DNA of 64,000 nucleotides from positions 26,164,001 through 26,228,000 of the forward strand of contig CM069159.1 in the NCBI GenBank assembly GCA_035221665.1, given 5' to 3'. The notes beneath the pieces were generated by a model. That model had not been told where the DNA came from and searched no databases. It saw only the letters and a program-made list of their open reading frames with translations. Each line of letters begins with the position of its first letter. Position 1 is the first letter of the stretch. A program made the position numbers and the translations under genes. Below are positions 3,681 to 62,962 of this stretch, piece by piece. Source of the stretch: Okamejei kenojei. Lineage: Eukaryota.

Positions 3681-3843
3681 GGAAGGAACTCTGCAGATGT
3701 GTAAGAAGTAACTGTAGATGCTGGTTTAAATGGGTGACGTTTCCGATTGAGACCTAATAAGGGTCTCGACCTGAAACGTCACCCAATCCTCTCCAGAGAT
3801 GCTGTCTGTCCCGCTGAGTTATTCCAGCATTTTGTGTCTATCT
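3681..3843. mobile_element. Penelope-like pLTR-derived short insert, head-to-head inverted
   Basis: tgggtgacgtttc...gagacct followed by its inverse agggtctcgacctgaaacgtcaccca. Flanked by a 13-bp TSD, aagaatctgtcaa (3668-3680) and aagaatcagtcaa (3844-3856). Confidence 0.75.
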
Positions 3844-3856
3844 AAGAATCAGTCAA

Positions 3857-5190
3857 TCTCCACTTTATAAAATGTCCAATGACGACCTCCACAGCTACCT
3901 AGCAATATATTCCACATTCTCTCACTAAAGAAATTCCTCATCATCTCCTTTCTAAAGATATGTCCATTGATTCTGAGGCTGTGCCTTCTGATCCTACACT
4001 CTCGCATTACTGGAAATATTCACTATTCAGTAATGTTTATAAAGTTCCCACTCATCCTTCTAAACTCCAGCAAGTACAGGCCTAGGACCATCATACGCTC
4101 ATCATACATTAACCTGATAATTCCTGTAAACCACCTCTGGCCCCTCTCCAGCACTAACTCATCCCTCCTCATAAATAGGACCCAAAACTGCTCGCAATAC
4201 TCCAAACATGGTCTGACCAGTGCCTTATCAATACTACATCCCTGCTTTTATATTCTAGTCCACTGAAAATGAATGCTAACATTGCATTTGCCTTCCTTAC
4301 AATTGATTCAAGTTACAAAGTAACCGTTTGCCATTTTGGAATCCTCTTAATATTTAGAAAATAGTTTATGCCTTTATTCCTACTACCAAAGTACATGACC
4401 GCACACTATCCTATCCTGTATTCCATTGCAACCTCTTTGCCCATTCTTCTAGCCTGTCCAAGTCCTTCTTTGGATTCCCTGCTTCCTCTACACTACCTGC
4501 CCCTCCAATTATCTATGTATCATCCACAAACTTGGCCACAAAGCCATCAATTCCAAATCATTAATATACAATGTGAAAAGTTGCAGTCTCAACACCGACG
4601 TGTGCAGAACACCATTAGTCTCTGGCAGCCAACCAGAAAAAAAACCCTTTATTCCCACTCCTTGCCTTCTGCCATTCAGCCAATCTTCTATCCATGCTAG
4701 TACCTTCCTTATAATACCATGGGCTTTCATCCCTGTTTACCAGCCTTTTGTGTGGAACCTTATCAAAGGTCTGCTGAAAATTCAAGTAAACAAGGGCCCC
4801 AACCTGAAACATGACCCATCCTTTTTCTCCAGAGATGCTACCTGCTGAGTTACTCCAGCACTTTGTGTCTATCTTTGGTAACATTCACTGACTCTCTTTT
4901 GTCTATCCTGCTATTTTCTCCATCAAGAGTTCCAACAAATTTGTCAGGCAAGATCTCCCCTTCATAAAAGGACGTTGACTTTGGCCTATTTTATCATCTG
5001 CTTCTAAGTACTCAGAAACTTCATCCTTAATAATGAACTCTAATATCTGACCCACTGAAGTTCCCCTCTTTTGCCCTGTTCCCTTTTTGAACAGTGGAGT
5101 AACATTTGTAATTTTCCAGTTCTCTGGGACCACACCTGATTCTAGTGAATCTCAAAAGTTCACTATTAATGCCAGCATCGTTATCTTCAT
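3857..5190 (-). mobile_element. CR1-type LINE ORF2 (RT) remnant, fragmented, with a nested PLE pLTR at about 4792-4876
   Basis: Minus-strand ORF pieces: VPENWKITNVTPLFKKG, FMKGRSCLTNLLE, VYLNFQQTFDKVPHKRL, KAHGIIRKVLAWIEDWLNGRRQGVGIKGFFSGW, LFTLYINDLE, EYCEQFW...LERGQRWFT. Confidence 0.9.
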
Positions 5191-5529
5191 AATCTTCCTC
5201 TTCACTTCCAGATACCACACCAATTTGGCCATCACTACCTGTGCCATGTCCAAGATCAGCTACATTGGTACAAACTAGGAATCAGTTCTGGTCTATAGCT
5301 CAGTTGCCTTCTGTGTTCACATGGCTGCTGGAATAAAATGCAGCACCTCGTCCTGAGATAAACTAATACTGGCTGCATTGCTTTACTGAACAATACTGTT
5401 GGCTTTGTTGCAAAGCGTGGTGAATGGGCAGGAATAAGTTACAAAAGTAACACTATGGTAACCCTATCCTGTTTTGAAATCTGAAGATATCATTTGCATT
5501 AAGGACTATGCCTTTGAACAATATGTCTT

Positions 5530-6780
5530 GGTATTGGGTAATTATTGTCACGTGTATTGAGATACAGTGAAAAACATTGTTTGGCATCTATCCAGGCAGA
5601 TCATAGCATACACCAGTACATCAAGGTAACGTTGAAAAGAAAAAGAAACAGTGCAGAATATAGTATTACAACTGCAGAGAAAGTGCAGTTAAAACATGTG
5701 CAAGGGCCACAATGAGATAGTGAAGATATGAGACGTCCATTCAAGAGTCTATTAACAGTGAGGAGAAGGTGTTCTCGAATCTGGTGGTACCTGCTTTTAA
5801 CCTTTTGTATATTCTGACTGGGAGAGAAGAGAAAGTGACCAGGATGGGAGTGGTCCTTGATTATCTTGGCTACTTTCCCAAGGCAGCATGAAGTGTAGAT
5901 GGAGTCCAGTGAATGCAGCAGAAGAACTTAGAACATGAAACAGTACGGCACAAAAATGGGCTCTTTGGTCTACTATATTTGTGCCAAACATGATGCCAAG
6001 ACCAACCCATATCTGCCTGCACATAATCCATACCCCTCCATTCACTGCATACACATGCGTCTATCCAAAAGTCTCCTAAATGCCACTTTTGTACCCGCTT
6101 CTACCTTCGGCAGCCTTTCCAGGCAACCGCCATTCACTGTGCAAAAATAACTCGTGCCGCACATCTCCATTAAACTTACCCCCTCTCACCTTTTAGTCGG
6201 AAATTGGGAGTTATGTGGTATTCTGGGCTGTATACACAACTCTCTGCAATTTCTTACGATCGTGGGCATACAGCTGCCATACCAAGCTACGATGCACCCT
6301 GATAGGATACGTTCCAAGGTGCCTCTGTAGAAACTGGTAAGAGTCGGTGCCAACACGCCCACGTTTTTTTTAGACTTCTGAGGAGGTGGAGGTGTGCTTT
6401 CTTGACCGTGGCATCAATGAGGTGGGACCAAGAGAAATTGTTGGTAATGTTTACACCTAGGAACTTGAAGTTTGACCGTATTCACTACAACACCATTCAT
6501 ACAGACTGTGTGGGGTATGTACTCCATCCCACTTCCTGAAGTCAAGACCAGCTCCTTCATTTTGCTGACATTGAGGGAGAGTTTGGCAGCTATGAAAACA
6601 AAGCTCTCTATCACTTTCCTGTACTCCGTTTTGTCATTATTCAAGATTTAGCCTACTATGGTGGTGTCCTCAGCAAACCTGTACGTGGAATTAGAGTAGA
6701 ATTTATAGGCAGTATAGTACTGGGATGAAAACTGCACCGGTTTTGTGAATTATCTGGGAGGATGTTTTGTCATCTATCTT
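5530..6780 (-). mobile_element. Rex1/Babar-like LINE remnant interrupted by a CR1 3' fragment (about 5925-6192)
   Basis: The 3' tail attattgtcacgtgtattgagatacagtgaaa is at 5540. ORF 6414-6644 NNDKTEYRKVIESF...LSLNVSKMKELV resembles the Rex1 RT C-terminal region. Confidence 0.7.
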
Positions 6781-6879: not shown

Positions 6880-8700
6880 TATTGAAAGATTTCATAGGAA
6901 CTTGTGGTGCAACCCTTTCCACACAGAGCATGTTAAGCATCTGGAATAAGCTGCCAGAAGTGTAGTGGTTGGTGCAGGTAGAATAACATTTAAAATACAT
7001 TTGGACAGGTACAAGGATACAAAGGACATGAGCAATATGGGTCAACCACAGACAAATGGAACTCGTTCAGATGGGCACATAGTTAACATGGACAAATGAT
7101 CTGAAGGGTGTGTTTCCATGCTACTAATTGTATGGTCTTACTTGTATGTTCTCCAGCATTTGGCATTTCACCCTGAGAAAATGATTCAGTCTGTGACCCT
7201 ATCTATGTCTCTCATAACTTTATGAACTTCCATCAGCTCTCCTCTCAGCCTTTCACGATCAAGCACAAGCAATCCAAGTTTTTCCATCTTTTCCTTATAG
7301 TTAATATAATCTAATTATGCAGCACACTTGTAAAACTCTTTTATACCCTCTTCATAGTCTCTATATCCTTCCTGTAATGGGGCAACCAAAATTGCACACA
7401 GTGATTAAAATGCAGTCTAACCAAAGTTTTATACAGCTGGAACATTACTTTTTCAATCTTATACTCANNNNNNNNNNNNNNNNNNNNNNNNNNNNNNNNN
7501 NNNNNNNNNNNNNNNNNNNNNNNNNNNNNNNNNNNNNNNNNNNNNNNNNNNNNNNNNNNNNNNNNNNNNNNNNNNNNNNNNNNNNNNNNNNNNNNNNNNN
7601 NNNNNNNNNNNNNNNNNNTGTAGCTACTTGTGTTGCTACTTTCAAGGAGCTAATGTTCAATGGTTCTTTATTGTCAGATGTATCGAAGGCACTGTCATTT
7701 TTTTGCATACAGTTCAGTAAAGTATTACTTTAAATAAGCACAATTTTAGATTAAGTACAAAGTGTAGGGAAATAGTCCACTGAAATAATGTCCGAATCAC
7801 CAGGTTTTGGCACCATTATCATAGTCCAAATTGCTTTGGATGCAGCTGGCCATAAAGGCCCGTTGACCTGACAGCGTTGCTGGGTTGGACTTGGCCTCCA
7901 GAATCTCTCTGTGCATCAATGTTATTGAGGCACCTGCAATTAACTGTTTACTTTCTCCTTGTATCTGATCTCCCAAAATGCAATACCTTACCAGATTAAA
8001 CTCCACAGGCCAATTCTCTTCAAATATCTGTTGCTGATCTATATCCTGCTGAATCATTTGGCAGATTTCCTTATTGTCTGCAATTCCACCTATGTTTGTG
8101 TCATCTGCATAATTAATAACCAAACCATATACATTTATGTCCAAGTCATATGACAACCACAGAGGTCCCAGCATAGATCCTTATGGAACTCCACTGGTCA
8201 TGGAACTCCACCCAGAATGCCACCCTTCCACACACGCTCTGTCTTTCTTGAGTAAACCAGTTCTGAATCGAAATGACCAACAGTGCAGAGAAGATTTACA
8301 AGGATGTTATCAGGACGTGAGGGCCTGAGCTATCAGGGGAGGATGGGCAGGCTATGGATGAGGGATAATCTTATAGAGGTGTATAAGATCATGAAAGGAA
8401 TAAATAAGGTAAATGCCCATCTTTTACCAAGGATAAATGTATCAAGAACCAGGGGACATAGGTTTAAGGTGAGGGGAAAGATTTAATAGGAACCCGAGGG
8501 GCAACATTTTCACACAGAGGTTGGTGAGTGTATGGAACGAGCTGCCAGAGGAGGTAGTTGAGGCAGGTACTATAACAGCATTTAAAGGGTATTCAAACGA
8601 GTACATGGACAGAAAAGGTTGAGTGGGATATGGGCCAAACGCGGGCAAGTGGGAGTAATGTAGGGTATCTTGGCCAAAGGGCCCATTTCTGTGCGAACAT
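6880..8700. mobile_element. Cluster of CR1 fragments in both orientations
   Basis: Minus strand: NYADDTNIGG...QQDID (7797-8174). Plus strand: QRRFTRMLSG.EGLSY..R...LIEVYKIMKG...RTRGHRFKVRG and the 3'UTR (8283-8690). Confidence 0.85.
7468..7618. other. Assembly gap (151 N)
   Basis: Run of N. Confidence 1.
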
Positions 8701-9754: not shown

Positions 9755-11020
9755 ATGTCATTAAACTGGAAAGAGTGCAGAAAACATTTAAGAGGAAGAT
9801 GCCAGGGCTCGAGGGCCTGAGCTATAAGGAGAAGTTGGTGAGGCTAGAACTTTATTACTTGGAGTGCTGGGTGCTGAGGGGTGATCTTATAGGGGTGTAT
9901 AAAATCATGATGGGAATAGATAGGGTGAATAAAGAGTCTTTTACCCAGGGTAAGGGAATGAAGAACCAGAGAGAGAGAGATGAAAGATTTAATAGGAATC
10001 TGAGGGGCAGGTTTTTCACTCAGATGCTGGTGGAATGAGCTGCTAGAGGAGGTAGTTGAGGCAGGTACAACATTTAAAAGATACTTGTGCAGGTAGATTG
10101 ATTGAAACGGTTTAAAGGAATATGGACCAAATGCGGGCAAGTGGGACTTGCTTAGATGGGGCATCTTGGTCGGCATGGATGAGTTGGGCCGAAGACCTGT
10201 TTTCATGCCAAATGACTCTAATTAAATTTAGGCAAGAATGCTTTTGGTACCAAGTGCAATATGATGTCAAGCTCGAAGATGTTTACAATATTTTTTAATG
10301 GCCCGTCCCTCTTTGTTAAAGTAGAGGCGTTGAGTTTAGGTAAGTAAAACCAGGGCAGGACTTGCACCAAAAGTGGTTGGGCCCCATGGAGTATTGTAAA
10401 ATAGAGAGACCATGAGGTGAATGTGCATACATCCATGAGAATGATGACGGGTGGGCATGCTCGCCTTCAATAGTCAGGGTATTGAATGCAGGAGTCAAGG
10501 TGTCATGCTACAATTGTACAAATGTTAGTAAGGAGGCCCATTTGGAGTATTGTGTAGTTCTGGTTGCCCTGCTGAAGGAAGGATATTAAATTGGAAAGGG
10601 TGCAGAAACGATCTATATGGATGTTATCAGAAAGATTTGAGCTATACGGAAAAGCCAGATAGGCTGGGCCTTTCTTCGCTGGAGCGATGGAGGCTGAAGG
10701 GAGACCTTATAAAAGTTTATAAAATCATGAGAAGCTTAAACAAGGTGAATAGCCACAGTATTTTCCCCAGGGTATGTGAATCTAAAACTAGATGGCGTAT
10801 GTTTAAGGTGAGAGGGGGAAAATGAAAGGAGGAGTTGAAGGGCAATTATTTCACAAAGAGGAGGTAGAACAAGCTGCCAGAGGAAATGGTAGAGGCAGGA
10901 ACAATAACATTCATTTAAAAGACAATTGAACAGGCACATGGTTTGAAGGGATGTATATCTGGTGTATATCTAGCTTGATGTAATCTGAAGTTGGGCTGAA
11001 GGGCCTGTTTACAAGCTGTA
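9755..11020 (+). mobile_element. Two CR1 LINE 3' fragments in tandem
   Basis: LERVQKTFKRKMPGLEGLSYKEKL...RGDLIGVYKIM (9694 ORF) and LERWRLKGDLIKVYKIMR...TR..FKVRG (10550 ORF), each followed by a CR1 3'UTR. Confidence 0.85.
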
Positions 11021-12521: not shown

Positions 12522-12645
12522 GTAAACTGCAGGTGCCGGATTACAAAAGAGACACAAAGTGTTGGAGTAACGCAGTGGGTCAGGTAGCAACGACAAAAGA
12601 CATGGATAGGTGACGTTTCAGGTCAAGACCCTTCTTCAGACAGAT
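12522..12645 (-). mobile_element. PLE pLTR fragment with hammerhead-like core (12612-12639)
   Basis: The reverse complement reads CTGAAGAAGGGTCTTGACCTGAAACGTCACC...gttactccaacactttgtgtc. Confidence 0.75.
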
Positions 12646-13690: not shown

Positions 13691-13887
13691 TACATTATCT
13701 AATGACTCATCCCTTTGTGGGATCTTGTGTTACTAACTAACTGGCAGCTTTATCATTGACAACACTTAAAAGTTGGTAATTTTTACGATACATTGGGATA
13801 CCTGACACAATCAATGCAAATTAAATACTCTTTCTATCTTGTTTTTGTGAACAATGTAACCATTCACAGGGAACAAGCTAAGAATAG

Positions 13888-14058
13888 AAAGGAACCGTAG
13901 ATGCTGGAATCGTGAGGAAAACACAAAGTGCTGGAGGAATTCAACCGGTCAGGCAGCATCTGTGAAGGGAATGGACAGGTGGCGTTTCTGGCGGGAGCCT
14001 TCTTTTGTGTAAAGTCTGAAATGTCGCCTGTCTATTCCCTCCACAAATGCTGCTTGAC
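13888..14058. mobile_element. PLE pLTR-derived insert, inverted pair, degenerate
   Basis: gtcaggcagcatctgtgaagggaatggacaggtggcg and its inverse tgtcgcctgtctattccctccacaaatgctgcttgac. Confidence 0.65.
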
Positions 14059-14348
14059 ATTGTGTTAAGCTAAAATAAATATACTCTGACCACAAAGCTA
14101 AGTGTAAAGTGTAACAAACTGCATAAATAAATTTCTTATTGATGCCTGTGAATGCAGTAGTAATGCGCTTATTACAGAACATTTTATTATTAAATATTTT
14201 TCAATACGGCTTAACAGGCCCATAAAAATATGTCGATGACTAAGAGGGTGGTGGGAATATTGGATGAGCTGCCAGAGGAGGTAATTGAGGCAGGCATTAT
14301 AACAGCATTTAAAAGATACTTGGAACAGGTACATGGCTAGGAAAGTCA

Positions 14349-15280
14349 TGTGCTGGAGTAATTCAGTGGGTCAGGCAGCATTTCTGGAGATAAAGAATGG
14401 GTGACGTTTCGGGTGGGGACTCTTCTTCCGAAGGTGAAGAGCAGAAGGTGAGAAACCTATCAGGGCCTCAGGCAGGGCGGTGCCTGGTAGGTCCATTGTT
14501 GGCTCGGGAAGGTGTGATCTCAAGAGAAACAATGAGGAGAATTATGGAACTGGTAAAACAACTAGGGAGGAGAAATGGGGCAAGGAGAGAGGGGGAGGGG
14601 AAGGGAGTATGAGATGAAGTGACTTAAAATTAGATAATTCAATGTTCAATTGAGTTGTAAGCTACCCAAACAAAATATGTGGTGCTGTTCCTCCAATTTG
14701 CTTGTGGCCTCACTCTGGCAATAGAGGAAGCCAAGGACAGAAAGGTCAGTATGGGAATTGGAAGAGGAGTTGAAGTGGCTGGCAACCGGGAGATCTAGGC
14801 GGACCGAGCACAGGTGTTCAGTGAAATGGTCACCAAATCTGTTTGGTCTCGTCCATGTACAGGAGCCCACATCAGGAACACCGGATGCAGTAGATGAGGT
14901 TAGAGGAGATAAATTTGAACCTCGGTCTAACAGGAAAGGATTGTTGGGGTCACTGGATGGAGTGAGTGAGGAAGTATAAGGACAGGTGTTACATCTCCAA
15001 GATGTGTTTAGTGGTGTTTGGATTGTGTAGTTTGGAGTTGATGGGAATGTCGGGGGATAAGGTGTTGGAAGCAAAACAACGAACATCTCCTATGGTTGCA
15101 GGAGAACGTACCTGGGTGGGAAGGGATGAGTGAACCAAGGAATTGCGAATAGAGCGGTCCCTGCGGGAGGTGAAAAGGGGTGTAGAGGGGAAGATGTGTT
15201 TAGTGGTGTTTAGATGTGTTTAGTTTGTTGACGGGAATGTCGGGGGATAATGTGTTGGATGTGGAAGCTGCTGGGGTGAG
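14349..15280 (-). mobile_element. Penelope-like element remnant: GIY-YIG endonuclease C-terminus plus pLTR
   Basis: ORF 14646-15086 reads RCNTCPY...RFGDHFTEHLCSVRLDLPVASHFNS.SHTDLSVLGF.YCQSEA..KLEEQHHIFCLGSLQ. A pLTR with a decayed hammerhead-like motif follows at about 14400-14430. Confidence 0.85.
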
Positions 15281-15399
15281 AGAATGTAGAGTGTTGAGAG
15301 AATTCCCTGAGCAACCACTCTATCTGTCAGGCCTTTTGCATAGAAATAAGTTCAATATAAATTGGGGTTAGACACAAAAAGCTGGAGTAATTGAGCGGG

Positions 15400-15960
15400 A
15401 AGGATGTTGTTAAGCTGGAAAGAGTGCAGAAAAGATTTTTGGGGATGTTGCCAGGACTCATGCTTGAGTTGAAGGCAGAGGCTGAGCATGCTCGGACTTT
15501 TTTCCTTGCTGCGCATGAGCCTGAGAGGTGTATAAGATCTTGATGAAAATTGATCGGGTAAATGCAGTTTTTTACCCAGAGCAGGGGAAGCAAGAACCAT
15601 AGGACATTTGGCAGAGTGGAAAGATCTAATAGGAACCTGAGGGGCAACTTTTTCCACACAGAGAGTGGTGGGTATATGGAACGAGCTGCCAGAGGAGGTA
15701 GTTGAGGCAGGTGGTATAACAACATTTGGAAGACATTTGAACAGGTGCATGGATAGGAAAGGAAAAGAGTGATATGGGCCAAGCCCTCAAGTCCTGGCAA
15801 TATCCTCGTAATTCCCCTCTGCACTCTTTCCAGTTTAATGGCATCTTTCCTATTTCAAGGTGATCGGAACTGAACACAATACTCCCAAGTGCGATCTTAA
15901 GATCTTGTATATCTGTATCAAAACATCCCAACTTCTATACTCAATTACCTGACTGATGTA
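15400..15960. mobile_element. CR1 3' fragments (+ 15400-15780; - 15790-15960)
   Basis: aagctggaaagagtgcag...acgagctgccagaggaggtagttgaggcagg, followed by an inverted partial copy. Confidence 0.8.
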
Positions 15961-17418: not shown

Positions 17419-17935
17419 ACTTTATTTATCCCAGGAGGGAAATTGATCTGCCAGCAGTCTTAAAACACAAGATACACGAAACATGAAGTTAAGGTGATGA
17501 GTAGAAAGAATTGAGGATGTGCAAAGATTGGGGGAGGGGGGGGTGGCGGAAATCAGTCTACCCTACAATAGAAGGGGCAAATGTTGCATAGTTTGATAGC
17601 CACTGGGAAAAGGGATCTCCTGTGGCGTTCTGTACTGCATCTTGGTGGAACTAGTCTGTTGCTGAACGTACTCCTCGGGTCGACCAGTGTGTCTGGGAGG
17701 GGGTGAGCTGTATTGTCTGAGATGCTTCGCAGTTTGAGGAGCATCCTCCCTTTCAAGACCACCTCCCATGAATCCAACTCTGCTTCCAGAACAGATCCAG
17801 CCTTCCTGAAGTGCTTGTTAATCCTGTTGCATTCGTGGTCTTCGCCATGCTGCCTCAACACATAACAGCAAAGAAGATGGGACTGGCTGCCACCGATTAG
17901 TAGAGCATCTGCAGCATCTTACTGCAGATGTTAAA
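17419..17935 (-). mobile_element. Rex1-like LINE 3' fragment
   Basis: ORF 17553-17861 reads RINKHFRKAGSVL...RML.KL.SI.DN.AHPL...STFSNRL..PRCSTERHRRS.FP.AIKL.N. Confidence 0.8.
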
Positions 17936-20272: not shown

Positions 20273-20484
20273 CTGTGTAGGAAGAAACTGCAGATGTTGG
20301 TTTACACAAAATGCTGGAGCAACTCAGCGGGATATGCAGCACCTCTGGATAGAAGGAATGAGTGATGTTTTGGGATGAGACCAGACTTCTTCAGGAGAAG
20401 GGTCTCGACCCGAAACATCACCCATTCCTTCTATAGAGGCACTGCCTGTCCCGCTGAGTTACTCCAGCATTTTGTGTCGATCTT
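20273..20484. mobile_element. PLE pLTR-derived insert, long inverted repeat
   Basis: Arms acacaaaatgctggag..ctcagcggga...gaaggaatgagtgatgttttggg and cccgaaacatcacccattccttc...cccgctgagttactccagcattttgtgt. 11-bp TSD caaaaaaacct at 20262-20272 and 20485-20495. Confidence 0.8.
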
Positions 20485-24202: not shown

Positions 24203-24296
24203 TGGTAGGCAAAAATACTGGAGAAACACAGCGGGTGCAGCAGCATCTGTGGAGTGAAGGAAATAGGCAACGTTTCAGGCCAAAACCCTTCTTCTG
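24203..24296 (-). mobile_element. PLE pLTR insert (second subfamily) in SIK2 intron 2
   Basis: The reverse complement is gaagaagggttttggcctgaaacgttgcctatttcc...gatgctgctgcacccgctg. Perfect 10-bp TSD tgattggaat at 24193-24202 and 24297-24306. Confidence 0.75.
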
Positions 24297-24885
24297 TGAT
24301 TGGAATGCTAGTTGGAGGTAGTTTCTTCCTGCACTGACTCAAGATCCGGCTGACACATTTAGAGGGCCATACTGTTCCTTCGCTTGCTTGGCCGTTCCAT
24401 CAGATTAGGGCTGATTTGGCAACATGAGATCATAGAAAGATGCAGCAGAGACTTTGCCTCTACCTGCTGAGTTCCTCCAGAGTTTTTTTTCTGCTCCAGA
24501 TAGTCCAGCATCTGCAGTCTCTTGTGTCTCCATGAGATTGCAGCTCTTTGTTCTCATAATTTCACCTTTCTCTCCACCAGTCTCCACTTCCATCCCACAC
24601 TGCATTAGTGATTAATTCTCTTTACTCCTGCAAAGATGCTGCCGAGTAGATTTGGGGAGTGGTAAAAATGCAGCTGAATTTTTTTGAACAAAAGCAATAC
24701 TTGCAATTTGGCATGTAGCTTGGGATTCAGTTTGCAAAGGGAACACGACAGATAACTAATACTCAGATTTTTATTACAACTATGAAATGTTTAATGTTGC
24801 TTAATGTCTCATAACTAAAAGCTTTTAGTCCTTTAAAGGATAACAGCAGGAAATATTTGGGGTGTGGATTTTAGGTGTAAGGTGG

Positions 24886-24977
24886 GAAGAGGTGTCTCGA
24901 CCTGAAACGTCACCTATTCCCTTTCTCCAGACATGCTGTCTGGCCTGCTGAGTTATTCCATCTTTTTTTTGTCTATC
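24886..24977 (+). mobile_element. PLE pLTR insert
   Basis: tctcgacctgaaacgtcacctattcc...ctgagttattcca. 15-bp TSD ttaggtgtaaggtgg (24871-24885) and ttaagtgtaaggtgg (24978-24992). Confidence 0.75.
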
Positions 24978-25125
24978 TTAAGTGTAAGGTGGATTTTGCT
25001 GGCCCTCTGTGTACCTTCATTTTTCTGGTTCATTCGTACCGCAAGCCTGTGGGTATTTTTCAATATATAAATTTTGATGGTCTCAGTTGAGGTAGGTGTT
25101 GACTTGCTCTTTCTTGTGTTCGCAG

Positions 25126-27437: not shown

Positions 27438-27529
27438 GGTACACAAAAGGCTGGAGAAACTCAGCGGGTGCAGCAGCATCTAAGGAGCGAAGGAGATAAG
27501 GCGACGTTTTGGGTCGAGACCCTTCTTCA
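27438..27529 (-). mobile_element. PLE pLTR insert with hammerhead-like core (27503-27530)
   Basis: The reverse complement is CTGAAGAAGGGTCTCGACCCAAAACGTC. Perfect 11-bp TSD gatctttcttg at 27427-27437 and 27530-27540. Confidence 0.8.
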
Positions 27530-27639
27530 GATCTTTCTTGTTACCCCACTGACTGATGTATGCTTGGTACATTATAAGCTCTGTTATATTATGCCATGTC
27601 TCTCCTGTGAATGTTTGATTCATTGATTGAATTGATTTG

Positions 27640-43971: not shown

Positions 43972-44570
43972 GTGCAGATGCTGGTATCTTGAACAGAAAC
44001 ACAAACTGGAATCTTGAGCAAAAAACAAACTGCTGGTCAGGCAGGATCTTGGAGGGAAATGGACAGACAACACTTCAGGTCAAGACCCTTCTTCAGACAT
44101 GGAGCAAAGTGGAGATAACTGGTAGAGAGAGGTGAGGGGAAGGAGTGGGTAAGAGCTGGCTAATGACAGGTGGATCCAGGTAAGGATGGTTGATTGGCAG
44201 ATGAGGCCGATGGTGGAGAGAAAGGTGGAGATAGTGACCTCTGCTGGAGATGATAATGTGGAAGATGAGAGGATGCAAATGGTGGAACCTGATAAGAAAG
44301 GAAGGTGGGAAGTGATATGTAATACCAGAGGGAGGGATTGTAGGAAAAAGGGAGTGGAGGAGGGAAACATGGGGATTGTGGAGTAGGGAGGTGTGGTTGA
44401 TGAGCAGAGGTGGAGGAGAGGGAAAGGAACTGAGTAATGGAGGCATGGGGAGCAGAAAAAAATGGATGCATGGAGGGAAGACATTTTACATGAAATTAGA
44501 GCATTTAATGTTCAAATCGTTTGGGATGGAGGCTACCCAAACAGAGATGAGGTGGCATTCTTCCAGTTGC
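43972..44570 (-). mobile_element. Penelope-like element 3' remnant (end of GIY-YIG ORF, UTR, pLTR)
   Basis: The reverse complement of 44490-44570 resembles KLEE.HLIF.LG.L.P...N..SNF. The pLTR contains caggtcaagacccttcttcagac at about 44076-44098. Confidence 0.7.
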
Positions 44571-45480: not shown

Positions 45481-47204
45481 ATCAACGCATTGTCTTTGCT
45501 GGGTTTTTTTTAAAGCTCAGTCTGTCATTTCCTGATATAGGTAATACCACCTCTGATAAACCTACGCTCGTACGCCTCAGAAGGACATAAAGTACTAGAG
45601 TAACTCAGCAGGTTAGGCAGCATCTCGACCTGAGACGTCACCTATCAATGTTCTCCAGACATGCTGCCAATACCCGCTGAGTTACTCCAGCACCGTTCCT
45701 TTTGTGTATTAACCAGCAACTGCAGCTCTTTGTTTCTACTATCATGCCTCAGATCATCTGGCGCTGATACCTTCATCCACGTCTTTGTTAACATTATAGC
45801 TGACAAGCTTTGTCTGTGTTCTAACATGCATTTTCATGCCTTGCTCTTTGCTACATGGTTCTTGGTGAAGTACCTCTTCATTTTTAATTTATTTCTCACC
45901 CTTATTTACAAACTCAATCTTGTCAATATGATGTACTCTAGCCCCAAAGTCTGATGAAATGTCTGTTCTTTAATTTTCCTCATCCCTAAATGTAATCACA
46001 GTATTTGTGGCTGGACCTTTGGGTGGCAAACTCACAAATTATAAAATTCTTTCCCTCTTTGCTTCTCATTTTAAGATGTTTGTTAAAAATATTCTTTCTG
46101 ACCAAGCCTATGACAATCTAATGCAGTTCAGCATCAATTTATAGCTTAACAATGCTGCAAGGCTTCTCTCTAAGTAAAAGCTGATGTTAGAATTTCAACT
46201 ATAACACATTAGACAAAGAACACAAATGTACTCCGCTTTTATCTCAACTAACATAACACATGCACACCTCTGTGTACATGTAGAAATATACATAATGTAG
46301 AGCAATCTGCCTTGAATTTTGTTCCATTTTCAGACTAAATGTGGATGGCTATTACTTTAAATCTTCCACCATGGTGACACTGCAGAGCACTGGCTTCCTG
46401 CAGCTCTCTAAAGTTGTGTTATGCAGACAGCAGGGTGTAAATGGTTCCATCTGCCACAGACCAGCCCCCTGGCCATGAGAAGGCAATCACACTGCAGCGT
46501 TGACAGCTTGTGTGCGTCATCAGCACTGCTTTGAAAATTTTCTACTTCAGATAGCGGCTAACAAGCTTTTAGTTCTCACCTGTTGAAGGCAACATCAGAC
46601 AAAAGCTTTCCAGTGAGAGGGGCAAAGGCCATTAAAGCTGTCATTTTATTACTTTCCTGCATTCAAGAGGAATTCTTCCAATTTACAATAAATATATCTT
46701 CAGTTCAGCAGGGAGTTGGACAGATTTCACCCCCATACATCTATGGTCTTTTGAAATTGCACAATCATAATAGCTACCGAGTACACTTCATCACTTTAGG
46801 AGCTAACGAGGCATTTCAATGCACATATATTTGCATCCCAAGGAGCCAGATCACATTTTAAATGAGAATCTCTCTGATTAAAATGATGGAAATCAAAGTA
46901 AATTGACAAAAGACACAATTATAAATCAGCAACCATCTCATTTTTCAAGCCTGTTGTGAAATTTGAAATCATGGATGTGACATTGAACATCTACAGATTC
47001 CACCTCAAACGGGCTGAGTTCTGAAACAATCTGATTTTTTAAAATAAGATTTATTTCAGCACCATTGTACTGACATTTGTGTGCAATGTAACACTGGTTG
47101 ATTAATGTTGTGTTCTCGATGTTAGCTGCAGATGTTGACCTGGATTTTGCCATTTACTAAAGTACTGTTTATTTGGTGTGACATTGTGATATAATAGCAG
47201 CTGG

Positions 47205-47535
47205 TTATATAGTTATACAGCACGGAAACAGGTTCTTTGACCCATCTTATATAGCAACCAAGATGTCCCATCCATGCTAATCCCACCTGAACATGTTTAG
47301 TCCATATTTCTCTTAACTTTTCCAATCCATGTACCTTTCCAAATGTTTTTTTTAATATTGCTATAGTACCTGCCTCAACTACCTCCTCTGGCAGCTCATT
47401 TAATATACCCCACCACACTCTCTGTGAAAAAGTTGTCTCTCGGGTTCCTATTAAATCTTTCCCCTTTCACCTTAAGCCTATGTCCTCTGGGTCTTGATTC
47501 CACTCCTCTGGGCAAAAGACTCTGTGCATTCACCC
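47205..47535 (-). mobile_element. CR1 3' fragment
   Basis: NELPEEVVEAGTIA..K in ORF 47122-47418. Confidence 0.8.
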
Positions 47536-49969
47536 ATCACTATTCCCCTCGTGTTGTTATACACCTCATGCCTGAATGTTGTCTAGACACTCTGCATCAC
47601 AGCTACAGAGACCTGGTTTCGATCGTGACCTCCATTGTTGACTGTGTGGAGTCTGCATGTTCTCCTGCATGGGTTTCCCTGCATACCCTGGTGTACTCCT
47701 ACATCCCATATGCAAGTTGGTACATTAATTATTCACTTCCCCTGTGTGTGTAGATGGTGCTTGGTTAATTAGGGGAATTGATGGGCATGTCACTGAGGAA
47801 TGAGTTACCGGAAATAAGTTGGGGAATGGATTGAAGGGTTGCTTTAAGAACCAGCAATGTGGTTGGGAAGTGTTATAACACTTGCAATTTTCCACTTTCC
47901 CCTCGATGTATTTTCAGGCTGATAATCTGTTTCCTGCTTTTCTGCTACGTATTCCTCGACACTGAGACCAAGCCACAGGCAAATTGTTCTACTTTGTTGA
48001 TTCATGGCCGAGTTGAGTGCTACTCACACTTGACACGCATGTCCAATGCACAGGAGCACACATTCTGAGTTGATCTACTTTCCTTCCTGTAAAATGTCTC
48101 AATGCTCTCTGGTATTAAACTGTTCAATTGGTACAGGCAAGCTTTAGGATCTAGGATATTTCTATTGCATCAAGCATTCATTCCAACAAGGTATCCTCAG
48201 GGCTAATCCAGTTTTGGCTTGGTTCTGTTCTGCTAAATTCTGTAGGACACCATGTAATAATAAATCAAGATGACACATTAATCCCCAATGCAGGTCAGGA
48301 AGCTCAGGAGCTGAGCTGAGCAGGTTCTGGCCTGGCCAGCAGAAATTTGGATCTGTTCATGTTTACAGAGAGTTCCCCAAATAAAATCTACCTTAAGTAA
48401 TCTTTTTTTTTAAAAATAAATCATTATTACTTTGTGAAAATGTATTTGAAATTGAAACCACATTCTAATATAGAGGGGTAGCAATCAATTAAATCTGACA
48501 TTGCGTTCTAATTGTGCAGGAAGGAACAGCAGATGCTGGTTTACATCAAAGATAAACACAAAATGCTGGAGTAACTTAGCGGGACAGGCAGCATCTTTGG
48601 ATAGGGTAGTGGTAAAAATATATTTTCAGGCAATCTTACAAAAGGCATGGTGTTCTCATTCTCCCCAAAGTTATCCCAGTGTAGAATTTATATTGCAATT
48701 TCCCTGTCTTCCAATATCCACTGATGTATGATCTGTGGTCTGTAAAACACCCATATGAAGGAGGAAGAATTGTCTGAGGTATACTAATCATTCCAAGTTT
48801 AAATGAAGAATTTCAAGGACCATGGTATGAAAGTGCCCAGTAAAAATGCAGGGGGATGTGGGGAAAGATTTCTCGTGCAAAGAGTGGTATTGATCAGTGC
48901 GTGGGTGGAGTCAAACAAGGCTTCTATGGGAGTAGAGTACAGAGTTTGTATGTTTTCCGCGTGGGTTTTCTCTGGATGCTCCGGTCTACTGCCACACTTC
49001 AAAAACGTACAGGTTTGTAGGTTAATTGACTTTGGTAAAAAGTGTAAGTTGTGCCTCCTGTGCTGAATAGTGCTAGTGTATGCGGATCTCTGTTTCTGCG
49101 CTGTATCTCTAAACTAAACCAAACCAAACCTTGACAGGGGGCTTGGCAGCACGGGAGCTGAGGCAAAAGCAAAATTAAAAGCTCTCTTAGCAACTCTTAG
49201 CAACCTTATGAACACATTTCACTGTCTCAGTTAATACAGAGTGAGCAGTTAGTGCCATGACCACGGGGAAACTTTGTTTGCACAAATAATAAAGAACCTA
49301 AGCAGATTAAATTCAAATGGAACTAAAAGGGTCATCAGGTAAGCTCTCGCTGGGAAGGTGCATAATGTAAACTGCCTGCTTGCGAATCTGGTGTCAGAAT
49401 GAGAACAATGGCATTGGAACCCACTGAGTGTAAACAGAGACTCAATGATGGGGACGTGGGCCTGGAGAGGAAATTCCTGTGGATTTGCGCATTGCATTTG
49501 AGAAAAGAAGAAAATATTATACCGTAAAATGAAACCAACAGATCAGGTGTTAATGACGATAAAACAATTTAATCCTTGTATGTGTTTGTTTTTTTCTGGA
49601 CCCTTTTAAACTGGTGTTAATGCAGCTCAAACAACTGTAAGCTGCTTTTTTTTTTAACTCATCTGGCAGTTTATGCAATCCATGCCTCCAGCATGTGTCA
49701 GCTAGATAAAATAAACTGCCATTTGTTTAGCAACTCTTACATCCACAGAACTTCCCAAAGTTATTTTAAGTGCATTGAATTACTTTTTGAAATGTAGACA
49801 GAAATAGTTGCTTAGTTGTATACATCAATGCAAGTTTTAAAAAACTGCAGATGCTGGAAATCTGGAAATAAAAGCAGAACGTGTATGAGTTTGTATGTAA
49901 TCGTTGTAAACAATCAGCAGAACAGGCAGGTTCATGGAGATTTAGACAGCCTCATTTCCCCTCCATTCA

Positions 49970-51548: not shown

Positions 51549-51686
51549 GTACACAAAAAGCTGGAGAAACTCAGCGGGTGCAGCAGCATCTAAGGAGCGA
51601 AGGAGATAGGCGACGTTTCGGGTTGAGACCCTTCTTCAGCTTTTTGTGTACCCTCGATTCTCCAGCATCTGCAGTTCCTTCTTTAA
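51549..51686. mobile_element. PLE pLTR insert, partly inverted, with an intact hammerhead-like core on the minus strand
   Basis: Perfect 15-bp TSD cactatttattgttg at 51534-51548 and 51687-51701. Confidence 0.85.
51612..51639 (-). ncRNA. Putative minimal hammerhead ribozyme motif (PLE-associated)
   Basis: CUGAAGA-A-GGGU-CUCA-ACCC-GAAA-C-GUC: both conserved core boxes, helix II and the GUC triplet are present. Activity is not shown. Confidence 0.55.
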
Positions 51687-52073: not shown

Positions 52074-52304
52074 NNNNNNNNNNNNNNNNNNNNNNNNNNN
52101 NNNNNNNNNNNNNNNNNNNNNNNNNNNNNNNNNNNNNNNNNNNNNNNNNNNNNNNNNNNNNNNNNNNNNNNNNNNNNNNNNNNNNNNNNNNNNNNNNNNN
52201 NNNNNNNNNNNNNNNNNNNNNNNNNNNNNNNNNNNNNNNNNNNNNNNNNNNNNNNNNNNNNNNNNNNNNNNNNNNNNNNNNNNNNNNNNNNNNNNNNNNN
52301 NNNN
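52074..52304. other. Assembly gap (231 N)
   Basis: Run of N, next to CT-rich low-complexity sequence (52305-52490). Confidence 1.
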
Positions 52305-55940: not shown

Positions 55941-55946
55941 TTCAAT

Positions 55947-57411: not shown

Positions 57412-59429
57412 ATTCAATTCAATTCAATTCAATTCAACTTTAATGTTGTTGCACAGATACAAGTATGGGTACAACGAAATGCAGTTTAGCGTCAGTTCGT
57501 AGTAATAGCAATATATAAATAGATACAGAATGCAGACAATGTGGACGGAGAGACTGGAGAAATCTATCGGTGGGACTCTGAGTTCAGCAGTGTGATGGTG
57601 TTGTTATAGAAGTGGTTCCTCATCCTACTAGTGCGGGACCTGAGGCTCCTGTACCGCTTCCCTGATGGTAGGAGGGCAAACAGTCCATGGTTAGGGTGGG
57701 AGGGGTCTTTGATGATCTTCCCGGCCCGTCTCAGACACCGTTTTCGGTGAAGGGCATCCATGGCAGGGAGCGGGGCACCGATGATGTACTGGGCGGTTTT
57801 CACCACCCGTTGTAGTGCCTTCCTGTCTGCTACGGTGCAACTGCTGTACCGTACCGTAAAGCAGGTGGTCAGGATGCTTTCGATGGTACAGCGGTAAAAG
57901 TTGGTTCAGGATCTGGGGGAACAGGTGGGCTTTTTTGAGCATCCTCAGGAAGTAAAGGCGCTGCTGCACCTTTTTGATCAGCTTGAACACCTCCGTGTTG
58001 AGGGACCAGAACAGATCCTCCGAGATGTGTACCCCGAGGAATTTGTAGTTGGAGACCCGCTCTACCTCAGCCCCTGTTTATGTGGATGGGGGTAGTGTCT
58101 GCCCCCTCTGTTCTTTCTAAAGTCAACAATGATTTCCTTCATCTTCTGGGAGTTGAGGACGAGGTTATTGTTGGCACACCAGGTTGTCAGGTGCTGGACC
58201 TCCTCCCTGTAGGCTGACTCGTCGTTGTCACTGATCAGTCCTACCACCGTGGTGTCGTCGGCAAATTTTATGATGGCGTTGGAGCCATGCTTGGGGATGC
58301 AGTCATGGGTGAAGAGGGAGGAGAGGAGAGGGCTGAGCACACAGCCCTGTGGCACGCCGGTGTTCAGTGTTATAGTGGAGGAGGTGAGGTTGTTGACCCT
58401 AACAGACTGTGGTCTGTTAGAGAGGAAATCCAGTGTCCATTTGCAGAGGGAAGTGGAGATGCCAAGACCGCTGAGTTTGGTGATCGAGCTAGAGGGTATG
58501 ACAGTGTTAAAGGCGGAGCTGAAGTCGATGAACAGCAACCTGATGTAGGTGTTATTGCTGTCCAGGTGGGTCAGGGCAGAGTGTAGGGCCGCCGATATGG
58601 CATCCTCTGTAGACCTGTTGGTCCGGTAGGCAAACTGATGGGGGTCCAGTGTGGGGGGAGGCTGGCTTTGAGGTGAGCCAAGATCAGCCGCTCGAAGCAC
58701 TTGGCGATGACAGGGGTGAGTGCCACTGGCCGGAAATCGTTGAGACTCCCTGTCGCTGATTGTTTGGGCACTGGCACAATGGTAGATGTCTTGAGGCAAG
58801 TGGGAACGACACCCTGGGCCAGTGACAGATTGAAAATGTCAGTGACGACCAGGGATAGTTGTCCAGCACATGCCCTGAGCACCCGCCCGGGGATGCCATC
58901 GGGGCCTGCAGCTTTGTTCTCATTCACCTTGCTCAGTGCATCTTGTTCAGCAGAGATGGAGAGACTGAGGGGTCGTTCATTCGGGGGTGGAGCAACTTTG
59001 ACGGCTGGAGTTTTGTTGTCCCGGTCAAAGCGAGCATAGAAATGGATTAGCTCGTCAGGAAGGGAGGCGTTGTCTGGGGGGGGGGGGGGGGATTTCAGAT
59101 TGGCCCTTTTTCAGATTGGCCCTGGATGAGCTGTATCCCTCAGCGTCGCCATATTTAAAAGCAGCGTCGCGAGCCTTCAGCAGGAGCCTGACCTCCCTGC
59201 TCATCCACGGCTTCTGGTTAGGGAAGGTCTTTATCTCTTTGTGGGTAGTGACGTTGTCCATGCAGAATTTTATATAGTCAATGGGTTGAGGTGTATGAGT
59301 TGATGTCTACTTGGGAGTTGAAGGTGGCCTGAGTGGCAAACAGACTCCAGTCTGTTTGCTGAAACTGTTCCTGCAAAACAGAGACAGCCCCCTCAGGCCA
59401 GACCTTCACAGTCCTCGTGGTAGGTTTCG
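57412..59429 (-). mobile_element. Rex1/Babar non-LTR retrotransposon, 5'-truncated, young
   Basis: RT motifs: [97 protein letters not shown]. The C-terminus is DPSHPNHGLFALLPSGKRYRS. The (TTGAA)n tail is at 57412-57437. 5-bp TSD TGGCA at 57407-57411 and 59430-59434. Confidence 0.93.
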
Positions 59430-59944
59430 TGGCACAGAGACAATGGGCCAAGTGGCATCTCATAATCAGTGTTTTGTTTCCCAAGAGGAATTTCCTCCTT
59501 GGCCAACTTTTCTGATCACATACTGCACATCTTTTCTCAGTCAAACTGTGAAGCTTACACTCATGCTCAGTTTGACAGTTGAAAGGCATTTACCAACACC
59601 GTAGCCTGTGACCTTTACGCAGTGAAAGGTCACTGATGTGGATTGTGCTTTGATTCAGCACTTCAAAGCATCTCCATTTACAGCACTAAACGGCCTTCCA
59701 CGGCCAGGGGCTGTAAAACTTGATCATTTCCCTTTGATTTCAACACCGGGGCCAAATGTTAAAAGCTGAAGAAATAATCTGGAACGATTTAAATCTCTTG
59801 AAGATATCATATAGTTTGTGAATGTTGAATGCTGGGCCACCACTTGTACGGAGGATAAGGGGATGCTGTTAGAGTCGGAGGGGGTGGAGAGTACAGTCTT
59901 GACGTGCAGCTTGATTTAAAGGAAATTCCCTTTTTTGTCTTTAA

Positions 59945-60218: not shown

Positions 60219-60220
<2 letters not shown>

Positions 60221-60714: not shown

Positions 60715-60831
60715 TGCCTGAAGAAGGATCTCGATCCAAAACGTCACCCACTCCTTCTCTCCAGAGTTGCTGCCTATCCAGCATTTTGTGTCTATCTTTG
60801 GTTTAAACCAGCATCTGCAGTTCCTTCCGAC
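60715..60831 (+). mobile_element. PLE pLTR insert with a covariant hammerhead-like stem
   Basis: CTGAAGAAGGATCTCGATCCAAAACGTC at 60718-60745. TSD acgttcggttgaagg (60700-60714) and acgtttgtttgaagg (60832-60846). Confidence 0.78.
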
Positions 60832-61409
60832 ACGTTTGTTTGAAGGGATGGGTTTAAATAAAATAAAATTATTCTGTTGATTAATGATGAACATTTGTAT
60901 TCAAGGATAGTGAGAGTAAAAGGACTCTCACATCAAGTCGCCACACCAAGGCATTGGTGTACTATTAAGTGTTGCCACTGTGCTAACATGGGAAACACAC
61001 ACTCTGAGGGCATCAAACTCCCACAAGCAAGGTAATTCCAACCAGATTATCCATGAGAGTGAGGTTAGCTGCAGAGTAAATATTCACCCCAAGGCACCAG
61101 AAATAACGTTCCTGCTCCTCTTTGAAAGGATGGCATGTGGTGTTTTTCTTGAACTGGGAGATGGGGACTTGATTTTGGATCTTTCCCAAAAGACAGCAAA
61201 TGGGTCAGTGCAGCACACCCTTTAGGGTGACACTGCAGTTCAAATTAGATTATTATTCTCAAACCTCTGGAAATTGCCGACGCCTGGACAATATCCCTCT
61301 GATGCTTTCCTATCCATGTTCCTGCCCAAATGTCTTTTCAATGCTGGAATTTTACCTGCCCCTAATACTTCCCTCAGCAGCTCCACGCTCCGTGTGAAAA
61401 AAGATCCGT

Positions 61410-61685
61410 GCCTTTCGGATGAGCCATTAAACCGCGAGCATTAGTCTTAAGAGATCCATGGCACTATTTCGAACAGGGCAGATAAATAATTCTGGGCCAA
61501 TGCTCACCTATGATTCAACAGCATAAAACAAGACAATCTGTTGCTGTTGTGGGACCTTGCTCTGCCCAAATTAGCTGCCATTTTTCCTACATTATAACAA
61601 TTGCCAGATCTTAAAATAAATATTTAATTGGCTCTGAGTGTTTGGCATGTTCTGAAAGGCTCTGTCTGAATGTGAGTTTCTTTCT
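61410..61685 (+). mobile_element. DeuSINE (SacSINE1-like) remnant
   Basis: tttcggatgag.cattaaacc...gatccatggcactatttcgaa...gtgggaccttgct.tgcccaaattagctgcc...cctacatt.taaca...gaaaggctctg. Confidence 0.7.
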
Positions 61686-62406
61686 CCTGCACAGCAGTAA
61701 CAGCTTACCAGCCCAGTGGGGTTTTTGACTGCAACAGAGATTTAACTATTATTCTGAGAATCTCTCATTGAGAGCTTGGGGCAGGGTTTACTCTGCACTA
61801 TTTCCCCATTTTTTGACGGATGAGCCGCCGTTTGCAAGATGGAAGGAATTATTTCTGGGAGTCATCTTCACATTTGGAAGTGGAACCCAGGTCAGGTTAT
61901 TCCAGGGAGCCACCAGCTCAACCCCCTTCATATGGGGATTAATGGTAAAAAGTACAGGGAGGGGGAGGAAGAGAGCGAAAGCAGCTTGACGCGGTGACAG
62001 GAGTGCCTCTCATTGTGAAGCAGTCCCTGTGATATATCCTTTAACTGCTGGAGAGCAGAGGATTGACGTCAAACACTGCTGATCAGTATGCTGTTCGTTA
62101 AATGAGACCGCTCAGGAAACGAGTTCATAACCATGAGCTCCTATCTGATTCTTTTGTCAGCAGATTAGCTGAATACATTCTCTTGCTAAACTGAAGCCCT
62201 GCTATTGGGCTGTGGATTGGGGAGGGTGGGGAGAGGAGAGTCGATAACATTTTCACGACAGAAGAGTCAAGGTCATTAAAAAGGAGAGGCAAACTTGCTT
62301 TGTTCTCTGATGGATTTATTTTTTAAAGAATTTTCACCACAATTTCAAGGGATGGTTGGTCAGAATGTCAAAGGTCAGCTGCTGTTATGCTCCAGCACTT
62401 TAATCT

Positions 62407-62962
62407 GGACGATTGTTTCGCGGAACACCTTCGCTCAGCCCGCGTGAACTAAGCTGATCTCCCGGTTGCTGGACACTTTAATTCTCCTTCCCATTCCTAC
62501 ACAGACCTTTCTGTCCTTGGTCTCCTCCATTGTCAGAGTGAGGCTAAACGCAAATTGGAGGAACAACAACTCATATTTTGCTTGGGCAGCTTACAGCCCA
62601 GTGGAATGAATATTGATTTATCTCACTTCCTTCAGGTAGCCCCGGCATTTCTTCCCTCCTTCTCTATCCCTACCCCACCAAAGTCGCACCAGCTTCTCAT
62701 TTTCACCCTACAAACAGCTTACAATGGCCTGTTTCCTTTATCATCGTTACTTTTTTGCATAACTTTCATTCATTGTTCTTTTATCGCTCCACATCACTTT
62801 CTATATATCTCCTGTCCCTTATTCCTAATCAGTCTGAAGAAGGGTCTTGACCCGAAACGTCACCCATTCCTTCTCTCCAGAGATACTGCCTGTCCCGCTG
62901 AGTTACTCCAGCTTTTTGTGTCTATCTTCAGTTTAAACCAGCATCTGCAGTTCCTTCTTACA
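62407..62962 (+). mobile_element. 5'-truncated Penelope-like element: GIY-YIG C-terminus plus complete pLTR
   Basis: Translates FAEHLRSAR..DLPVAGHFNSPSHSYTDLSVLGLLHCQSEAKRKLEEQQLIFCLGSLQPSGMNIDLSHF, followed by the pLTR. TSD cactttaatct (62396-62406) and cacttgaatct (62963-62973). Confidence 0.9.
62834..62861 (+). ncRNA. Putative minimal hammerhead ribozyme motif, sense to the SIK2 pre-mRNA
   Basis: CUGAAGA-A-GGGUC-UU-GACCC-GAAA-C-GUC with all core nucleotides intact, located in the PLE terminal repeat. Confidence 0.6.

Follow-up and report, generated by a model that had tools for sequence, protein, structure and literature searches.

Penelope-like ends in a skate genome window

We analyzed a window of 64,000 nucleotides from the skate Okamejei kenojei (GenBank assembly GCA_035221665.1, contig CM069159.1, positions 26,164,001 to 26,228,000 of the forward strand), a stretch of AT-rich animal DNA that holds many copies of a short repeat. 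These repeats are almost certainly ends of Penelope-like elements (PLEs) that carry a minimal hammerhead ribozyme (min-HHR). Most are short stubs, and their 5′ ends gather at the upstream edge of the hammerhead rather than at its cut site. The parts of the repeat are described here from one reference copy, where an open reading frame (ORF) and an untranslated region (UTR) precede the hammerhead within a pseudo-long terminal repeat (pLTR), and two candidate start sites for reverse transcriptase (RT) follow it. All features of this copy lie on the + strand:

62402–62629: C-terminal remnant of a PLE GIY-YIG endonuclease ORF with one in-frame stop (tblastn with protein P0008)
62630–62830: pyrimidine-rich 3′ UTR, or upstream part of the pLTR, between the ORF end and the hammerhead; covered by many contigs
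62802–62807: TATA-like hexamer 29 nt upstream of A62831, a putative core promoter; the family majority letter at 62807 is C
62829–62833: initiator-like TCAGT; 5′ ends pile up genome-wide at 62831–62833
62832–62863: minimal type I hammerhead recognized from the sequence, with its predicted cut between 62861 and 62862
62864–62928: leader body, ending at the more upstream of two frequent 3′ ends (loose ends behind 62928); probably RT start site 1
62929–62964: optional 36-bp tail, ending at the other frequent 3′ end (loose ends, inverted joints); probably RT start site 2

A 28-nt core gave eight matches in the window at up to three mismatches and none in 100 shuffles. A profile search returned 35 rows, 29 of them at E<0.01, and its best match on the reversed window had E=1.1; the seed consisted of 21 window copies, which match by construction. 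The profile resolves 24 sense segments and 5 inverted partner pieces, making 29 segments in 23 insertions. Three insertions run upstream through the pyrimidine-rich UTR into an ORF end, and 20 are short. An earlier, sequence-only reading of the window had listed about 20 copies or fragments on both strands; all 20 sites were recovered, together with extra fragments at 15.4, 24.45, and 49.9 kb. On the scale used below, the first C of the core (C3) is +1 and the cut site is +29 (62862). Target-site duplications (TSDs) are given where they were found for the other 22 insertions:

3681–3843 (+): short insertion with inverted tail pieces and an inverted hammerhead part, then the sense unit from +4; 13-bp TSD
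4789–4878 (+): short sense unit from about +4; TSD not found
12525–12641 (−): short unit from −1, core intact; TSD not found
13886–14059 (−): short unit from +4, inverted 5′ partner at 14015–14059
14352–15278 (−): 5′-truncated PLE with post-RT region, Cys linker pieces, GIY-YIG end (14632–15278), UTR, and unit (14352–14431)
15358–15403 (−): unit fragment from +56 to +102, lying just upstream of that ORF remnant with the same orientation; perhaps a partial tandem
20274–20484 (no strand assigned): head-to-head double insertion with arms to +131 (tail end) and about +95; 11-bp TSD
24203–24296 (−): short unit from +1 to +3; 10-bp TSD
24446–24523 (+): fragment from +45
24885–24980 (+): short unit from +3; 15-bp TSD
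27438–27531 (−): short unit from 0 or +1, G12 mutated; 11-bp TSD
27856–28034 (−): unit from +2 with inverted partner; 9-bp TSD
29100–29224 (+): unit from −3 or further upstream (censored); without TSD
29382–29473 (−): diverged unit from −2, CUGAUG-type core
31876–31970 (+): unit within a presumably CR1-like fragment; 12-bp TSD, 5′ microhomology
38435–38567 (−): unit from −1 to the tail end (+131)
43961–44568 (−): 5′-truncated PLE with the last ~25 ORF codons, UTR, and a unit with partly duplicated tail
45582–45745 (+): unit from +12 with inverted partner; 8-bp TSD
48513–48604 (−): unit from +40 to the tail end
49843–49940 (−): weak fragment from +41
51549–51686 (−): unit from +1, inverted tail on its 5′ side, core intact; 15-bp TSD
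60718–60833 (+): unit from +1 to the tail end, G12 mutated; TSD possible, degenerate

Two assembly gaps (N runs) at 7468–7618 and 52074–52304 take up 382 bases together.

The Penelope origin proposed in the sequence-only reading is borne out by tblastn matches of proteins with RT and GIY-YIG domains to the ORF remnants. The RT-bearing PLE proteins P0008–P0012 match both 62402–62629 (shark protein P0008, E 1e-23) and 14632–15278 (E 2e-14 and 8e-11). At the third place where the unit had been said to follow a GIY-YIG ORF (44493–44568), the link is weak, with about 25 codons and a blastn E of 3e-5 to the 14.6-kb remnant. The matching proteins come from sharks and marine assemblies, and the closest named proteins to the endonuclease remnant are from skates (Leucoraja, Rhinoraja, and Amblyraja). 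The homologues give the GIY-YIG domain in Pfam at E 1e-3 to 7e-5; Pfam returned no match for the endonuclease piece of the window alone. No PLE RT was found in the window by tblastn, and the homologues have RT upstream of the same endonuclease. Degenerate pieces of a Cys linker (CX2-5CxxC) lie at 15080–15121 and near 14996, and the linker is intact in the skate protein P0003. A linker of this kind between RT and endonuclease is, according to the accessible text of PMC8557442, a hallmark of the clades Neptune and Nematis. The repeats are the pLTR ends of a Penelope-like retrotransposon whose linker is of the Neptune/Nematis type; several of its subfamilies are represented, and it probably belongs to the Neptune clade. 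A min-HHR follows the ORF in the three long window insertions, long copies are present for at least two of the window's unit subfamilies, and the pyrimidine fraction is 0.72–0.78 in the last 100 nt upstream of the hammerhead. The protein searches gave no full-length protein labelled as skate, with long matches among unnamed representatives left aside.

Three side observations concern these ORFs. A 70-bp internal duplication (14999–15069 and 15191–15259, 89%) splits the Cys linker of the PLE ORF remnant. Predicted shark and skate gene models (P0003, P0004, P0006, P0007, and P0008) have absorbed PLE endonuclease ends, which are probably annotation artefacts there. The C-terminus of P0008 (Stegostoma) reads through into a hammerhead region, and its translation implies a CUGAUGA core.

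The hammerhead motif

In the reference copy, helix I (62832–33/62862–63) is followed by CUGAAGA (62834–40), an extra A (62841), helix II of 4 bp with a 4-nt loop (62842–45/62850–53), GAAA (62854–57), the palindrome ACGU (62857–60), and C17 (62861). The sequence-only reading had called this a minimal type I hammerhead with a very weak helix I and a helix III reduced to ACGU, which cannot close within one copy. The reference sequence agrees on each count: it has CUGANGA, the extra nucleotide, G10.1-C11.1, GAAA, and palindromic positions 15.2–16.2, and its helix I has 2 bp. The motif had also been called ultra-minimal. It is not new: this minimal form is the min-HHR already published (PMC4209133), and it is common in related elements. 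As described in the accessible part of that paper (Cervera and de la Pena 2014), min-HHR consists of conserved nucleotides only, with an extra base between positions 9 and 10.1, G10.1-C11.1, and a palindromic 15.2–16.2. Its monomer was inactive and the activity of its dimer low. Copies were mostly single, dispersed, and tied to truncated PLEs, and the motif was reported in the fish elements Xena, Poseidon, and Neptune.

A strict min-HHR scan of 80 metagenome loci, chosen by a related ORF, gave 38 matches in 32 loci. The same ACGU-C ending is present in 21 of the 38 matches of these related marine elements, once together with CUGAAGA. One marine relative (L001:1169) has a hammerhead with a 6-nt helix III palindrome, which lies inside the tblastn match range rather than in its flank. 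Rfam returned no hammerhead match in the window at E≤1, and only four chance microRNA matches. Across 12 equal-length motifs from skate and marine loci, six of seven pairs show changes on both sides; the motifs were hand-picked, and both relatedness and choice inflate this covariation. The 19 window copies show no covariation above shuffles (66–232 of 500 shuffles reach the values). One alignment row (c20394m) is out of register at the core, with a slight effect on the covariation, core-integrity, and energy results.

In the minimum free energy (MFE) structure of the reference monomer, the purine-rich core pairs with a downstream pyrimidine run and no hammerhead is formed. By nearest-neighbour energies, a double hammerhead is predicted at 17–21 kcal/mol above the dimer MFE in the skate and at 7–16 in four relatives. 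We claim no conserved downstream structure because five unit sequences fold no better than shuffles (z −0.58 to +0.68). Hammerhead activity would need help, to judge by these models and by the Anolis element, whose hammerhead cuts only with its protein (PMC11167929, accessible text).

The core has mostly been lost in dispersed copies. Core, palindrome, and helix II are intact in 3 of 19 window copies and broken in the other 16. In one public sequencing run (X2; depth-weighted figures), A replaces the catalytic G12, a CpG base, in 16% of depth; variation is 9–15% at the remaining CpG bases listed and about 2–3% at nearby non-CpG bases. So few cores are intact, and G12 is lost so much like any CpG base, that decay of the dispersed copies is neutral. 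CpGs are nevertheless kept in the unit consensus, which would fit selection on the ribozyme in source elements only. We dropped the missing substitution rows at 62834–62841 as a sign of conservation, as edge clipping and incomplete counting also erased known upstream differences.

The 5′ and 3′ ends of the unit

Among 21 short segments in the window, 16 start at −3 to +4; the other five start at +12, +40, +41, +45, and +56. Compared with uniform truncation over 69 nt, this clustering has p ~1e-11 (5e-10 without two doubtful copies). The remark in the sequence-only reading that several copies start almost exactly at CTGAAGA understated this non-random pattern. Its suggestion that ribozyme cleavage truncates the copies does not hold: no segment (0/21) starts at +29, and the cut site is not among the loose-end rows listed genome-wide.

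Genome-wide statements rest on contigs of public sequencing runs (X2, X6, and others). About 338,000 contigs of one run touch 62560–63020, and exact DNA patterns had no match among contigs from metagenomes or prokaryote genomes. Loose ends with heterogeneous flanks pile up at −2 to 0: run X2 has at least 1488 at 62831, at least 1472 at 62832, and at least 918 at 62833, and run X6 repeats the peaks at 62831 and 62832. Loose ends at 62829 (at least 1980 in the X2 row) and 62874 were rejected as true ends; with an agreement of 0.39–0.59, they reflect subfamily divergence or the element's own UTR continuing. Ribozyme cleavage does not set the 5′ ends.

At the other side of the unit, both DNA runs show peaks of loose ends behind 62928 and 62964. 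These positions are 36 bp apart, and contigs hold many inverted joints from 62923–62931 to 62964. The optional 36-bp segment is the known PLE tail of 30–40 bp. In the accessible texts of PMC8557442 and PMC3846280, such a tail, inverted 5′ copies, and TSDs are insertion traits of endonuclease-bearing (EN+) PLEs; in that of PMC11167929, the tail of the Anolis PLE lies between two internal RT start sites. An inverted partner is present in 6 of 20 short insertions. At 20274–20484, both arms stop at the 5′ edge of the hammerhead; one reaches the tail end and the other the first 3′ site.

TSDs of 8–15 bp abut both ends at p≤0.004 in nine of the 18 short insertions tested (of 20), and two more are weaker; the search was position-constrained and boundaries were set by eye after a first search, which makes these p values optimistic. 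The earlier claim that most copies have their own TSDs is therefore upheld for about half of them, and not for "most".

Two minor contig classes lie beside these ends. Behind 62957 in run X15, a minority of contigs extend beyond the tail into sequence that is partly shared (agreement 0.41). In run X17, the tail end is linked back to the hammerhead start by spacers of 14–31 nt in single deep contigs. Both classes may stem from full elements, as their leader, or from tandem units that are rare.

How the stubs may have formed

Taking these results together, we find somewhat more to believe than to doubt in the following account: the repeats are pLTR ends with a min-HHR, mostly decayed stubs of ~95 or ~135 bp that arose by run-off priming. 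The run-off cDNA mechanism itself we put at about even. The element transcript would start at 62831–62833, 1–3 nt before the CUGA core, presumably as a capped RNA polymerase II (Pol II) start. The unit would also sit at the 5′ end of the full-length skate element, as it does in one relative (L003), a full element with two pLTRs (910–1110 and 3976–4176) in which the hammerhead and ~80 nt lie upstream of a 920–964-aa ORF and the unit recurs behind it. A transcript from the upstream pLTR would thus carry an RT start site ~80–130 nt from its 5′ end. RT would prime at this 5′-proximal internal site of its own uncut transcript, and the short cDNA would run off at the first base of the RNA to give a stub. 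Stubs that lack the upstream TATA would mostly be dead on arrival. The ribozyme would be selected only in active source elements, where it would need protein and a second copy.

Published work gives several parts of this account a basis, as far as the accessible texts go. The pLTR holds the transcription start site (TSS) in D. virilis and Chlamys, with a putative TATA and initiator in A. vaga (PMC2377424, PMC3846280, PMC8557442). The RT of PLEs starts internally whatever lies 3′ of the site, both strands of the target are extended, and the Anolis PLE RT mainly copies uncut RNA (PMC11167929). Given these properties, the cDNA expected from proximal priming is short and terminates at the first base of the RNA.

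In the skate unit, TCAGT was judged by the usual initiator consensus, and the TATA-like hexamer has counterparts in relatives. One relative family has such a hexamer at −36/−37, 30 nt before an initiator-like A, and a second has one at −36; in these two families the hexamers lie 30–32 nt before the A just ahead of helix I. A TATA-like pattern has a chance of about 2.3% per 11-nt window. In both DNA runs, the plurality letter before 62831 and 62832 is G, in flanks whose consensus is otherwise A/T, and a lone G stands between inverted arm and unit (before 62828 or 62831) in 3 of the 12 rows shown. An untemplated G is what a copied cap would give, as in other retroelements.

A number of points weigh against this account. 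The TATA pattern was picked after seeing the data; it is absent from four other relative families and from the two other long skate copies, and a TATA-like run also occurs by chance upstream of 31876. We rejected that run as part of a pLTR, since the copy sits with a TSD in what we take to be a CR1-like fragment. The G in front of the unit may belong to the subfamily sequence, as part of a longer helix I, and not come from a cap. None of the four simple TSD-defined window junctions (24296, 24885, 27531, and 31876) has a clear extra G; these junctions start at 0 to +3, a little further in than the peak seen genome-wide. Among the six X2 rows shown, the lowest count is 485, so the cut site could hold up to 485 ends if these are the top six (counts are incomplete). 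One relative family, from ORF-selected loci, has 3 of 23 partial segments starting at −8 to −1 and one at +29. In D. virilis, the hammerhead is not at the TSS because a 75-nt intron, which starts 46 nt after the TSS and ends at helix I, separates them (PMC4209133, accessible text). All ends were mapped on contigs and not on RNA, and no full-length skate element was recovered.

Alternative explanations

The unit could instead be a self-propagating, non-autonomous partner resembling a short interspersed element (SINE). In that case the PLE protein would copy, in trans, the RNA of master stubs, whose transcription would start at an internal promoter or come from host read-through. We consider this unlikely, though slightly more probable than the other alternatives. 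Depth over the unit in run X2 is ~10x that of the best UTR bin and ~20x that of the ORF end; contig depth does not measure copy number, and UTRs that have diverged escape the count. Penelope of D. virilis contains an internal promoter, pLTR sequences suffice for mobilization in trans, and non-autonomous PLE derivatives are known (MRC1; retrozymes). However, the long copies argue against it, being present for more than one of the window's unit subfamilies, and so does the frequency of broken cores, with G12 decaying like a neutral CpG. A consensus that keeps CpGs while copies lose them at 9–16% is what a few protected sources feeding dead copies would produce. Nor was a Pol III SINE head (tRNA-, 7SL-, or 5S-derived) found: the unit gave no tRNA gene and no Rfam match, and it is wholly pLTR-derived.

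A related possibility, to which we give slightly less credence, is that the 95–135 nt unit is a Pol II mini-retroelement, born as a Penelope-leader run-off cDNA and recopied by PLE protein into very many copies across skates and sharks. It would retain its initiator and its hammerhead fold as well as the two RT start sites, with the hammerhead serving as a protein-recognition tag and not as a cutter; our low estimate applies to this combination as a whole. If true, the unit would be a SINE equivalent without a Pol III head.

Equally doubtful is a structural or protein-dependent stop, or a template jump, at the folded and protein-bound hammerhead, which would terminate cDNA synthesis on a longer RNA or direct the joining to the target. 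The 5′-end peak lies exactly at the 5′ strand of helix I (62832–33), several junctions (27531, 31876, and 51639) show 1–5 nt of microhomology with the target or an inverted arm, and the Anolis hammerhead is protein-assisted (PMC11167929, accessible text). Against this, RT would already have unwound the fold on reaching its 5′ edge, and according to the same text, core mutants of the Anolis hammerhead leave the size of the insertion product unchanged. A stop would also leave the TATA/initiator spacing and the preceding G unexplained.

Splicing is still less probable as the source of the edge. Here, the pyrimidine-rich upstream region and CAG (62830–32) would form a splice acceptor, as in D. virilis, and the stubs would come from spliced RNA. 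An upstream exon would then be expected, whereas the loose flanks at 62831–33 have no consensus (agreement 0.31–0.33) and TSDs directly abut the unit in four copies.

The least probable explanation is one raised in the sequence-only reading, a retrozyme-like mobile RNA; its tandem units would self-cleave as dimers, circularize, and be reverse-transcribed. In its favor, some contigs run from 62964 back to 62829–32 (30–46 contigs per row in X2 and X6), a few of them with short spacers, and vertebrate retrozymes derive from pLTRs (bioRxiv 10.64898/2026.07.22.740005, accessible text). However, the unit is so dense (one copy per ~3 kb) that chance alone should place two same-strand copies on one contig, and tandem units are absent from the window, where the nearest same-strand copies among 20 hammerhead-bearing starts are 423 bp apart. 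Together with the lack of window segments starting at the cut site and the dimer energies given above, and with only one of nine Xenopus dimers cleaved (same preprint, accessible text), this leaves the explanation very little room.

Relation to known elements

The comparisons that follow are with the accessible portions of the papers cited. The skate unit shares with min-HHR a loop-less helix III, palindromic 15.2–16.2, the extra nucleotide, a predicted need for a dimer, G10.1-C11.1, and mostly single dispersed copies (PMC4209133). Its helix I of 2 bp matches that of D. virilis and is shorter than the 4–5 bp of the schistosome form, and its helix II has 4 bp, unlike min-HHR as published there. 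Chondrichthyans are not named for min-HHR in the portion at hand, and supplementary figures S3–S4 of the same paper may list chondrichthyan motifs. With EN+ PLE insertions (PMC8557442, PMC3846280), the skate unit shares 5′ truncation, head-to-head inverted arms, the optional tail (36 bp), 8–15 bp TSDs, and pLTR promoter motifs. However, no sharp pile-up of 5′ ends at the hammerhead edge is described in the text of those accounts that we could consult, and the solo pLTRs of A. vaga are attributed there to recombination or deletion.

The Anolis Poseidon element PAc offers the closest likeness in vitro (Frangieh 2024, PMC11167929). As is likely in the skate, two internal RT starts bound the tail downstream of the hammerhead; as in our reading of the skate, both strands are extended, uncut RNA is used, and no reads occur at the cut site. 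PAc, however, belongs to the Poseidon clade and its hammerhead overlaps the start codon, whereas the skate element has the Cys linker. Non-LTR retrozymes (PMC7229834; bioRxiv 10.64898/2026.07.22.740005) are, like the skate unit, short, non-coding, and pLTR-related, with a type I hammerhead. They are tandem repeats that give cleaved and circular monomers, whereas each skate copy stands alone and has its ends away from the cut site.

The hammerhead motif, the tail, the inversions, and the TSDs have thus already been published, and the family itself is ordinary. In a body of literature that largely excluded subscription papers, we found no paper that treats this family in chondrichthyans or describes a fixed 5′ end at the hammerhead edge. 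Lunse et al. reportedly describe PLE hammerhead variants, which may already cover the skate variant.

The edge bears on how PLEs define their template and on the role of the hammerhead, as the fixed 5′ point of the stubs and the two RT start sites argue for an uncut, probably capped template in vivo. If the run-off account is true, internal RT initiation, so far shown in vitro for a single element from a lizard, would account for a repeat that is very abundant in chondrichthyans, and the record of stub ends would serve as a simple genomic test for other PLEs.

Other repeats in the window

A non-LTR RT remnant at 57564–59600 on the − strand (Pfam RVT_1 E 9e-23 at 58062–58835) belongs to another family and is fairly well preserved; a related fragment lies near 17550–17920. 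We take the remnant to be a Rex1/Babar-type LINE (long interspersed element). A second abundant repeat occurs in pieces of 200–400 bp with 65–78% identity, for example at 8279–8654, 9755–10208, 10556–10947, 15399–15782, 47220–47567, and 63601–63989. By translation, these are presumably CR1-like 3′ fragments, and a number of PLE stubs have inserted into such pieces or next to them.

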